A DNA stretch of 4,821 nt from a virus (taxonomy: Duplodnaviria > Heunggongvirae > Uroviricota > Caudoviricetes): the IMG/VR virus record IMGVR_UViG_2706794669_000008; one strand, given 5' to 3'. The notes beneath the pieces are model-generated. The model was not told the origin of the DNA. It ran no database searches and saw only the letters and a program-made list of their open reading frames with translations. The position numbers were made by a program, and so were the translations under genes. Shown here piece by piece: positions 1-4,821 of this stretch (within the stretch, counting starts at the first letter, position 1; the number at the start of each line of letters is the position of its first letter).

Positions 1-83
1 AGGGACAGCTGATAGAAACAGAAGCCACTGGAGCACCTCAAAAACACCATCATACACTAAATCAGTAAGTTGGCAGCATCACC
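1..83 (-). mobile_element. IS1 terminal fragment (IRL end; element body lies left of the window)
   Basis: Positions 1..83 are the exact reverse complement of the first 83 nt of IS1 as I recall it (GGTGATGCTGCCAACTTACTGAT... at 61..83 reversed). The 23-bp terminal inverted repeat ends at 83 and the sequence becomes AT-rich, non-IS DNA from 84. Confidence 0.9.
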
Positions 84-190
84 GAAGTGGTAAAGAAGAT
101 AATAAAGAATAATATTTAGGGTTATAGGTCTTAGCCCATTTTAAATGGAAGGCAGACATGCAGCCATGCATACTTCGCATGGCAACATAA

Positions 191-532
191 TTATTTAGAC
201 AAACTATCTAATTTTTGCGTCGCTTTTTGTGTTAGGTCGCTGTAACTGATAAACCCTACGTTAGNNNNNNNNNNNNNNNNNNNNNNNNNNNNNNNNNNNN
301 NNNNNNNNNNNNNNNNNNNNNNNNNNNNNNNNNNNNNNNNNNNNNNNNNNNNNNNNNNNNNNNNNNNNNNNNNNNNNNNNNNNNNNNNNNNNNNNNNNNN
401 NNNNNNNNNNNNNNNNNNNNNNNNNNNNNNNNNNNNNNNNNNNNNNNNNNNNNNNNNNNNNNNNNNNNNNNNNNNNNNNNNNNNNNNNNNNNNNNNGCAA
501 ATAATCAGACACCGTTTTTCCATCAGTTTCAA
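191..532 (-). CDS. hypothetical protein, mostly N-masked; boundaries and frame continuity uncertain
   Basis: Readable N-terminus MKLMEKRCLIIC (TTG at 532, first ATG at 523) and C-terminus ...NVGFISYSDLTQKATQKLDSLSK with TAA stop at 191..193. The interior 265..496 is N. Same strand as, and about 60-70 nt downstream of, the 595..972 ORF. No convincing Shine-Dalgarno. Whether the two readable ends belong to one ORF cannot be verified. Confidence 0.3.
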   Translation of the reverse strand: MKLMEKRCLIICXXXXXXXXXXXXXXXXXXXXXXXXXXXXXXXXXXXXXXXXXXXXXXXXXXXXXXXXXXXXXXXXXXXXXXXXXXXXXXNVGFISYSDLTQKATQKLDSLSK

Positions 533-594
533 GAAGAATTACTAGATCTCTTACTTCACCACTGACTTGAGTGCATCCTTAGTAGTAATGTTAA

Positions 595-972
595 TCATTT
601 TTTCCCTCCAAATACGATGCCCTCTACGTCTTTGGAAGCTTTTTGTGATGACCACTCCTCTGAATCAGGTGATTTAATTAAAAATATTGTATCTCCATCA
701 AAAATCGTATTTGTTCCGTAAAAATTCACATTTGATAGATCACCACCAAAAACCCTCTGCCCACTCGAGGTAATTGCCTCACCTAATTTAGTAAAATTAC
801 CAGCAATAGATGATTTTCTTTTTCCACTTCTATTCAAAGTGGCTTTAATTACACCACCACCATCCTTAGAGTTAAATAATTGAATGTCCACTCCAGCAGT
901 TGGTTGTATATATTTTGAAAGCTCTTTCTTGAACTTGTTAATATATTTATCTTTGTTTTCTTTGTTGGTCAT
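595..972 (-). CDS. hypothetical protein, 125 aa, Lys/Gly/Ser-rich, no recognisable domain
   Basis: Uninterrupted 375-nt ORF in roughly 30-35% GC DNA, where stop codons are frequent, so a chance ORF is unlikely. Single ATG at 972, TGA stop at 595..597. No signal peptide or hydrophobic segment, no Cys or His. Weak ribosome-binding site. Confidence 0.55.
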   Translation of the reverse strand: MTNKENKDKYINKFKKELSKYIQPTAGVDIQLFNSKDGGGVIKATLNRSGKRKSSIAGNFTKLGEAITSSGQRVFGGDLSNVNFYGTNTIFDGDTIFLIKSPDSEEWSSQKASKDVEGIVFGGKK

Positions 973-1006
973 TGGTTAGATCCATAGTTCTGGCTGTGAT
1001 TAGGTG

Positions 1007-1012
1007 AAAGTA
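1007..1012 (-). promoter_or_regulatory. candidate sigma70 -10 hexamer (TATACT) for the 595..972 gene
   Basis: Minus-strand TATACT lies about 35 nt upstream of the ATG at 972, with a TG dinucleotide immediately 5' of it. No good -35 match. Judged by eye only. Confidence 0.2.
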
Positions 1013-1125
1013 TACAAGGTTTTTAAAGCGAAGATCACTGTTTTGGCTTCAAGATAGTTTTGATTTATCGTAATCAATCCGCCATAATCCTCTCATCGGA
1101 GCCTGAACAACTCCGGTGACTTCTG

Positions 1126-1149
1126 CGCATTTAAGGGGACTTAAATGCG
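1126..1149 (+). promoter_or_regulatory. perfect 10-bp stem / GGGA tetraloop hairpin overlapping the RBS and start codon of the ylcH-like ORF
   Basis: CGCATTTAAG (1126..1135), GGGA loop (1136..1139), CTTAAATGCG (1140..1149). The 3' arm contains the ATG at 1145..1147 and the loop contains the GGGGA Shine-Dalgarno-like sequence. No U-tract follows, so it is not an intrinsic terminator. Confidence 0.4.
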
Positions 1150-1240
1150 ACCACAATCTGAACTCATCACCTTGTCACAGATGCAGAAATGCACCTGCGA
1201 TTTTCTGCATTCTGCGGTTTCCGTTAGGGAGGCCGTATGA
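1145..1240 (+). CDS. ylcH: small ORF (31 aa, MRPQSELITLSQMQKCTCDFLHSAVSVREAV), ylcH-like position immediately upstream of ybcN
   Basis: ATG at 1145 preceded by AAGGGGA with 5-nt spacing. TGA stop at 1238..1240 overlaps the ybcN ATG (ATGA), the same coupling pattern as the downstream genes. Size and position match the DLP12 small gene ylcH; sequence identity is unverified. Confidence 0.4.
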   Translation: MRPQSELITLSQMQKCTCDFLHSAVSVREAV

Positions 1241-3117: not shown

Positions 3118-3257
3118 AAAAATAAAGGGTAATATATAACAGAAGGTTTATATAGTTAGAAGCAAGGTTGTGCTCCTAAAGGAAGTGGCTTGAGGGAGCC
3201 ACTTATATGTTGGGGAGGCAAAGCCTCCCGCAACATATCTTTTAGTAATCAAATTAG
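3090..3257 (-). ncRNA. ipeX: candidate IpeX-like sRNA region (3' end / downstream of nmpC)
   Basis: From memory, IpeX is a roughly 167-nt sRNA overlapping the 3' end and downstream region of nmpC in DLP12, on the same strand. Here the distance from the nmpC stop (3254) to the minus-strand terminator U-tract (about 3090) is about 165 nt and the region is highly structured. Ends are not mapped. Confidence 0.4.
3183..3243 (+). terminator. candidate terminator for rightward transcripts (tR'-like), tandem hairpins plus CTTTT
   Basis: Hairpin A: AAGTGGCT / AGCCACTT (3183..3204, loop TGAGGG). Hairpin B: ATATGTTGGGGAGGC-AAA-GCCTCCCGCAACATAT (3205..3238, one bulged G), followed by CTTTT at 3239..3243. 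Sits between Q and the convergent porin gene. Confidence 0.35.
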
Positions 3258-4336
3258 AACTGGTAAACCATACCTACAGCAACGATATCATCGGTAGCAA
3301 CGCCAGATGCTTTCGTGAAATCGCTCTTATCAATCAGGTTGATTTTGTAATCAACAAAAGTGGACATATTTTTGTTGAAGTAATAGGTTGCACCTACATC
3401 AATATATTCAACCAGGTCCTGATCACCCCACGCACCCAAGTCTTTTCCTTTAGATTGCAGGTAAGCAACGGACGGACGCAGACCGAAGTCGAACTGATAT
3501 TGTGCAACTACTTCGAAGTTTTGTGCTTTGTTGGCAATATGGTTATTACCAAAAACAGTCATGTTCTGGGTTTCAGAATAGGTGGTAGCCAGATAGATGT
3601 TGTTCGCATCATATTTCAGACCAGCTGCCCATACTTCAGCATTTTGACCAGATGCATTCAGGCTGTTGTTACCGTAGATAACCTGATTATTAGTGCGGTC
3701 AGATTTAGCATAGGTTGCACCTACACCGAATCCTTCATACTCATAAGTAGTGGAGAAACCGAAACCATCACCATTAGCTTCAGTTACGTCAGTGCGGTCA
3801 TTTTTACCCTGATACTGAGCAGCAAAGTTCAGACCATCAACCAGACCAAAGAAGTCGTTGTTACGATAAGTTGCAACACCAGTGGTGCGACCAGTCATGA
3901 ACACATCTGTTTGAGTCCAAGTGTCACCACCGAATTCTGGCAGGACGTCAGTCCACGCACCGATGTCGTATGCTACACCGTAGTTACGGCCGTAATCGAT
4001 GGAGCCGTAGTCACCGAATTTCAGGCCAGCGAAGGCAAGACGGGTTTTATCTTTGGAGGAACCTTGAGATTCAGCGCGGTTGCCTTTGAATTCATATTCC
4101 CACTGACCGAAACCAGTCAGTTGATCGTTGATTTGGGTTTCACCTTTGAAGCCAAGACGGGCATAAGTAGTATCACCATCATCTGCATCATTAGAGGAGA
4201 AGTAGTGCTTAGCATTAACTTTCCCGTACAGATCCAGCTTGTTACTGTCTTTATTATAAATTTCAGCTGCCTGAGCAGACATCGCCATCAGTACTGATGC
4301 AGCTACAGCAGAAATTGCCACTGTTAATTTTTTCAT
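3254..4336 (-). CDS. nmpC: outer-membrane general porin, NmpC/OmpD family, apparently intact (360 aa precursor)
   Basis: Start chosen at the ATG at 4336 ([23 protein letters not shown] signal peptide, then [16 protein letters not shown]...). The track start at 4396 adds 20 implausible residues. C-terminal ...VAVGMVYQF ends in the Phe typical of porins. Strong similarity along the whole length to my recollection of OmpC, NmpC and OmpD. TAA stop at 3254..3256. Confidence 0.92.
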
Positions 4337-4726: not shown

Positions 4727-4821
4727 GGTAATGACTCCAACTTATTGATAGTGTTTTATGTTCAGATAATGCCCGATGACTTTGTCATGCAGCTCCACCG
4801 ATTTTGAGAACGACAGCGACT
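4727..4821 (-). mobile_element. IS1 terminal fragment (IRR end; element body lies right of the window)
   Basis: GGTAATGACTCCAACTTATTGAT... from 4727 to the window end is the reverse complement of the last roughly 95 nt of IS1 (3' end of insB plus IRR) as I recall it. Same orientation as the left copy. Confidence 0.9.

Follow-up and report, generated by a model that had tools for sequence, protein, structure and literature searches.

Positions 113..1058 of the window (the whole 4,821-nt stretch of DNA analysed here) are a horizontally acquired, self-contained two-gene cassette, which is inserted in antisense orientation into a DLP12-like prophage, where the replication and nin modules adjoin it. 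The first gene (A) encodes a soluble protein. The second (B) encodes an inner-membrane protein, in which a soluble N-domain with the motif EGTPEE(I/V)..F..N.GL...Y...P is followed by three transmembrane (TM) helices.

In the window, two IS1 ends flank 4.6 kb of a DLP12-like lambdoid prophage. Exact matches to the two termini of an annotated IS1A copy were found at 1-83 and 4727-4821, in agreement with the IS1 which an earlier note on this DNA had placed on the left. Both termini are in direct orientation, and with one of them at each end, the window resembles a contig that was interrupted at IS1 repeats. The remainder of the replication gene P is gone at the left IS1 junction. Rightward of 1236, the order is ybcN, ninE, ybcO, rusA, ylcG and quuD, followed by a porin gene on the minus strand. 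The latter is an intact OmpC/NmpC-type gene (360 aa, 3254-4336) located between quuD and the lysis region; an AT-rich upstream region of 390 bp and then IS1 lie beyond it. Positions 1-264 and 497-2237 are identical to the complete chromosome CP104423.1 (locus L052). Window-identical sequence occurs in the complete chromosomes L052 and L059, where IS21 and lacY adjoin it. The features in and around the cassette are as follows:

1..83, no strand assigned: terminal 83 bp of IS1, an exact match to one end of annotated IS1A (L002 6775-6857); the prophage is truncated on this side.
84..112, plus strand: remnant of the replication gene P, its last 29 nt (...SGKEDNKE, stop), from alignment to L001 (P annotated at 5316-6029).
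113-1058, cassette genes on the minus strand: AT-rich insert between the P remnant and the conserved lambdoid leader.
113..190, no strand assigned: insert-specific spacer between the convergent genes P and B, with a hairpin at 119-137 and a T-rich run (terminator-like); a second hairpin at ~160-181 was read from the sequence.
191..598, minus strand: gene B, a pseudogene, from alignment to L001 and translation; masked at 265-496.
595..972, minus strand: gene A, intact, encoding a 125-aa soluble protein of phrog_18061, from the ORF and its homologues; its TGA overlaps the ATG of B (ATGA, 595-598).
973..1058, minus strand: insert-specific region upstream of A, presumed to bear the promoter, with a TATACT -10-like hexamer at 1014->1009 read from the sequence.
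1059..1236, plus strand: lambdoid leader upstream of ybcN, outside the cassette and forming its right boundary, with 79-95% identity to HK639, phi80, HK225 and phage 82.

The right boundary of the insert was set at the start of homology to other lambdoid phages. The 178-bp leader that begins there is present in ~2,800 E. coli records; its counterpart in phi80 is the feature IR4, and in phage 82 it carries an annotated -35, -10 and regulator-binding site. Some annotations put a 32-aa ORF within this leader (1145-1240). The AT-rich character claimed for the insert is evident in the window itself, where the GC content is 0.33-0.37 at 501-1100 versus 0.52-0.59 at 1200-2100. In an unmasked relative, the insert has a GC content of 0.35 versus 0.50-0.57 in the surrounding phage genes. 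The foreign base composition also holds for codon positions, the GC3 being 0.25-0.28 in the insert and 0.68-0.76 in the flanking P and ybcN. Transcription opposite to the nin genes, as had been claimed, was likewise borne out.

Two runs of N complicate the reading of the window. The mask at 265-496 comprises 232 N versus 252 nt in L052, i.e., it is 20 nt too short, and the mask at 2238-2432 comprises 195 N versus ~240 nt in L052. The masks do not keep length, and therefore frames and gene lengths read across them are unreliable; rusA appears to be 105 aa across a mask versus its real 120 aa. The earlier note had taken an intact ORF at 191..532 as the second gene of the module, which proved to be wrong. 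This ORF was rejected as a gene: its 5' piece (MKLMEKRCLIIC) is out of frame with the true C-terminus, and the two are connected only because the run of N, whose length is wrong, is read as open. The sequence hidden under the mask 265-496, whose recovery had been proposed as a check, was obtained from the relatives L052 and L001. It places the second gene, B, at 191..598, where it is a frameshifted pseudogene, and contains no further lesion in B. Among the findings that would speak against its module, the same note had named that 191..532 is not an ORF and that 595..972 is a fragment of a longer disrupted gene. The former turned out to be the case, but 595..972 is a complete gene.

The intact form of B is WP_000608370.1 (142 aa), whose start ATG overlaps the TGA of A and whose end corresponds to position 191. 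The ATGA overlap suggests that A and B may be translationally coupled. Based on hydropathy and an AlphaFold2 model, intact B has a soluble N-terminal domain of ~35-45 aa followed by the three TM helices. In the model (pLDDT 74), a small beta-hairpin and a helix precede three long helices, and its structural resemblance to other proteins did not go beyond generic helical bundles. Loop 2 carries a mean of 1.5 K/R versus 0.3 D/E, and this charge distribution weakly favours a cytoplasmic location of the N-domain and loop 2. The protein matches phrog_16940 over the entire HMM (E 2.3e-96, 1-142/142).

In the window, one base of B is missing at 574 (CC -> C, plus strand), corresponding to nt 25 of the gene. 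The reading frame is shifted at codon 9, and the product reads MINITTKD, then ALKSVVK, before a premature TAA at 551-553 (codon 16). The complete genomes L052, L059 and L061 share this deletion, which is the lesion of B in the Shigella-type genomes that match the window. Another 1-nt deletion, which arose independently, affects an A-run at nt 118 of B; it is present in L060 and L061 and splits B into ORFs of 46 aa and 96 aa, so that L061 has both deletions. In this Shigella-type lineage, gene A is intact where B has decayed by either frameshift. The module in the window is very probably non-functional, given the frameshift at codon 9 of B and the truncation of the prophage by IS1; A alone could still be made.

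The complete 125-aa ORF reported on the minus strand at 595..972 was confirmed, and its product is identical to WP_000182282.1, an annotated protein found in E. coli A7, 536 and others. It matches phrog_18061 from end to end (E 9.3e-85, 1-125/125 of the HMM). An exhaustive profile search with the alignment of enterobacterial A proteins as the query yielded 100 cluster representatives of the A family at E<=1e-3, nearly all of them 120-135 aa long, and 78 wider members of the family also match phrog_18061. The family is characterised by the motifs Y-I-N-N-F-R-R (near the N-terminus), F-G-G-N-L..F.F.G-T-N-T-I-L-E.N-R-I-I.I-K and E-W-S-D..A..D-V. No DNA-binding domain, known antitoxin domain or hydrolase signature was recognised in A by the profile searches.

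One metagenomic protein, P0098 (447 aa), combines an A-like domain (residues 1-120) with an HNH nuclease and an uncharacterised C-terminal region. Its HNH domain was assigned to Pfam PF01844 and matched McrA in the PDB at E 3.5e-5. The fusion is encoded at 246-1589 of the locus L062/L063 and represents just one metagenomic cluster, whose contig is 1.6 kb long. It hints that A may be modular and combine with different effectors.

Enterobacter and Klebsiella have close homologues (63-92% identity), and each of the 11 loci analysed from these genera contains a gene for 125 aa and, directly after it, one for 142 aa, the two overlapping by 4 nt. The moron-like arrangement proposed for the window was found throughout: in 11/11 Enterobacter/Klebsiella-type loci, as well as in the E. 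coli relatives, the pair is in antisense orientation, with the replication module on one side and the first nin gene on the other. The flanks vary, with P or DnaB/DnaC types plus small ORFs on the replication side and a ybcN-like gene or DUF1367 on the nin side, in mosaic surroundings. Among complete E. coli genomes, 46 of 5426 contain the cassette, always in the chromosome, as an 816-bp unit with an identity of >=99.8%, versus the ~2,800 records that have the adjacent leader. Between its conserved neighbours, the cassette is therefore either there as a whole or missing, and it deviates from them in base composition. As for signals of its own, the antisense orientation requires that the cassette has its own promoter; a consensus scan of 973..1058 gave none for A on the minus strand, with no good -35 and only the lone TATACT hexamer, and on the other side of the genes stands the hairpin at 119-137 with its T-rich tail. 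Overall, the cassette behaves like a moron, i.e., an accessory unit between conserved phage genes.

Both A and B are under purifying selection (dN/dS 0.07-0.19). A spurious pair of ORFs was ruled out because of this ratio together with the conservation of the genes. In E. coli CV839-06 (L002 6775-7542), IS1 is inserted in A at about codon 45 and B downstream is intact; in the MAG locus L033, A is truncated and B is likewise intact.

Other cargo was observed in the immunity regions of related prophages: a DUF4411 and ImmA/IrrE metallopeptidase pair at L001 925-2573 and, in Klebsiella-type phages (L007, L009 13685-14446), a KilA-N/BstA_C protein of the BstA abortive-infection family. These genes represent defence-type cargo at a second site in the same prophages.

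The pair forms one branch of an unannotated family that extends to many bacterial phyla and to phages. In 22/22 distant loci, an A-like gene is immediately followed by a B-like gene. These loci come from Acinetobacter and other Gammaproteobacteria, Nitrosomonas, Deltaproteobacteria, Myxococcales, a Nitrospira MAG, Acidiferrales, Synechococcus, Bacteroides, Flavobacterium, Mariniflexile and four IMG/VR viral contigs. The pair thus spans Proteobacteria, Nitrospirota, Cyanobacteria and Bacteroidota, in addition to viral contigs. The distant B-like genes encode 123-145 aa and in most cases share the ATGA overlap with A. Their products have the N-domain motif M-K-x-G..E-G-T-P-E-E-I/V..F..N.G-L...Y...P, three hydrophobic helices and a conserved R-F-K loop that links the second and third of these. 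The alignment of enterobacterial and distant B profiles by hhalign gave a probability of 98% (E 2e-13, 110 columns). An A-like gene followed by a gene for an EGTPEE-type domain with three TM helices was found in all 22 distant loci and in all enterobacterial ones, the B gene of the window being frameshifted. Co-occurrence of the two genes elsewhere, suggested earlier as a check, was seen in every locus examined.

An all-against-all comparison of 195 neighbouring ORFs at 24 loci gave no conserved third gene. Two distant loci have additional unannotated same-strand genes after the A/B pair, namely genes of 212, 220, 148 and 323 aa at L018 6875-9879, and genes for a 334-aa cysteine-rich protein and a 110-aa protein at L021/L024 6846-8324; these are not shared between the loci. 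In most hosts, the GC content of the cassette is lower than that of its flanks, with differences of up to 19 points. Phage or prophage contexts include the lambdoids, a phage contig that has genes for terminase, portal and lysis, and the edges of Acinetobacter prophages. At some loci, the neighbours are of defence type (HepT/MNT, SNF2 helicase with methylase, type III R-M, C5 methylases, SNIPE, KAP NTPase). However, many distant loci lie amid ordinary housekeeping genes, and the defence-island signal is inconsistent.

The absence of a recognised family for the 125-aa protein, as first reported, holds even with profile tools. No Pfam, NCBIfam or PADLOC family was matched by A, B and 99 members of the A/B family. 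In PADLOC-DB v2.0.0 (dated 2023), there was no hit for E. coli A or B, and the 99 family members gave three chance-level hits (E 0.002-0.009). The profiles of A and B had no match among PDB sequences. The sole library matches of the two proteins were phrog_18061 and phrog_16940, both of which are unannotated and labelled 'unknown function'. The families were not found in the literature searched, whose coverage did not include a relevant 2025 screen (Brenes and Laub, E. coli prophage defence genes). The accessions and sequences of A and B are also absent from the supplementary files of Rousset et al. 2022 (PMC9122126). Both protein families are undescribed in every library searched, but the kind of system, a small prophage-borne sensor with a membrane effector, is familiar.

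Based on the above results, we favour the reading that the pair could be a phage-defence module acting by abortive infection or exclusion, with a sensing or restraining role for A and membrane damage by B; we rate the chance of this as somewhat short of even. According to this scheme, the module would be expressed from the prophage, and A, as a cytosolic sensor or regulator, would bind the cytoplasmic N-domain of B and keep B inactive. Upon infection, B would be freed or oligomerised and the inner membrane would become leaky, so that the infecting phage would be stopped and the cell sacrificed. We counted in favour of such a module the constant order of A and B (in E. coli and in the 11/11 and 22/22 loci), the lack of a third gene, the purifying selection and the low GC content. 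The phage, prophage and defence-type contexts point the same way, as do the weak charge-based placement of the B N-domain in the cytoplasm and the A-HNH fusion without a B partner, an effector-swapping pattern typical of defence sensors. Against it stand the lack of homology to validated defence proteins in the PADLOC searches, the housekeeping contexts, the occurrence of the HNH fusion in a single cluster and the lack of a convincing promoter.

The pair might instead be a toxin-antitoxin or addiction cassette, with B as a small membrane toxin and A as a protein antitoxin; it would then stabilise the mobile element, and any phage defence would be incidental. We consider this unlikely. CptA/YgfX-type modules are an example of two-gene toxin-antitoxin systems with a small membrane toxin, and A/B resembles them in size, operon overlap, mobility, patchiness and low GC content, although no homology to them was detected. 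The pair is small, has a 4-nt overlap with the putative antitoxin gene first, and occurs as scattered single copies of low GC content in unrelated contexts, including housekeeping genes. In addition, it is the putative toxin that decays by two independent frameshifts in the Shigella-type lineage, while A is kept. However, the disruption of A in CV839-06 and its truncation in the L033 MAG, with B intact in both, would be lethal for a classical pair. IS1 polarity, which could silence B, or sequencing errors could excuse these cases. Since A-only genomes (Shigella-type) and a B-only genome (CV839-06) both exist, either gene can apparently be lost alone under native expression, which argues mildly against strict toxin-antitoxin dependency, polarity being a possible explanation of the IS1 case. 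Furthermore, neither a DNA-binding domain nor a known antitoxin domain could be recognised in A, and the A-HNH fusion fits a sensor better.

A membrane function outside defence, such as a stress-responsive channel, a transport regulator or a holin/antiholin-like pair timing lysis for the carrier phage, seems improbable. Class I holins also have three TM helices, a phage lysozyme lies a few kb away in three loci, and many chromosomal loci have no defence context. Nevertheless, no holin Pfam family was matched by B or 17 of its relatives, and B does not lie in a lysis cassette: the E. coli prophage has its own, essD/rrrD, elsewhere. The pair is antisense to the lytic operon and would thus not be timed with lysis, and its patchy, low-GC, mobile distribution (46/5426 E. 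coli genomes) is unlike that of housekeeping genes. Superinfection exclusion, in which the inner-membrane protein B would block the entry of an incoming genome with A as an accessory and the cell would survive, would suit a small inner-membrane protein carried as prophage cargo and transcribed independently of the lytic operon, but it is quite improbable given that the cassette is not confined to prophages and extends to phyla whose envelopes and phages are very different, and that a strictly conserved cytosolic partner and an HNH-fused variant are unexpected for a passive entry block. Membrane superinfection-exclusion proteins such as T4 Imm, HK97 gp15 and P22 SieA/SieB are single proteins tied to particular phage groups. 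They are, like B, small inner-membrane proteins carried as prophage cargo, whereas the A/B pair has an obligatory cytosolic partner and is found in many phyla and at non-phage loci.

For the suggested defence module, RexA/RexB of phage lambda, an abortive-infection system encoded by the prophage that pairs a cytosolic sensor with an ion-channel effector in the membrane, offers a comparison. It is also a two-gene prophage cassette expressed independently of the lytic genes, consisting of a soluble protein and a small polytopic inner-membrane protein, with a proposed logic of a sensor activating a membrane effector. RexA has ~279 aa, and RexB has four transmembrane helices. In contrast, A has ~125 aa, and B has three predicted helices and a conserved N-domain that is predicted to be cytoplasmic. 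There is no sequence similarity between the two systems: RexAB-type homology was not detected in the defence library, Pfam or PDB searches, including the PADLOC search with the 99 family members. The sites differ as well, rexAB being located in the immunity region and A/B between P and nin. Rst_Hydrolase-3Tm and other small systems that have TM effectors come from P2/P4 hotspots (Rousset et al. 2022, PMC9122126). Rst_Hydrolase-3Tm, like A/B, is a two-gene phage-borne candidate composed of a soluble and a 3-TM protein, but A lacks a hydrolase signature and the pair resides at the lambdoid P/nin junction instead of the P2/P4 hotspots.

Taken more broadly, A/B may represent a new multi-phylum anti-phage family of the abortive-infection type, a possibility that we regard as doubtful in this full form. 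Here, A would be a sensor with a new fold, and the effector would usually be a membrane-disrupting 3-TM protein and occasionally an HNH nuclease in cis; in lambdoid prophages of Enterobacteriaceae, the pair would be a lysogen-protecting moron at the P/nin junction. The copy in the window is a decayed remnant in an IS1-eroded prophage and is unlikely to act. Intact alleles are available in UPEC 536, F11 and A0 34/86, and the 1-nt deletion is a natural loss-of-function allele that provides a ready control. If the proposed defence role holds, this ~0.8-kb cassette with its two new protein families would be one more immune module built from a sensor and a membrane effector, and the replication/nin junction of lambdoid prophages would be a cargo site to mine.
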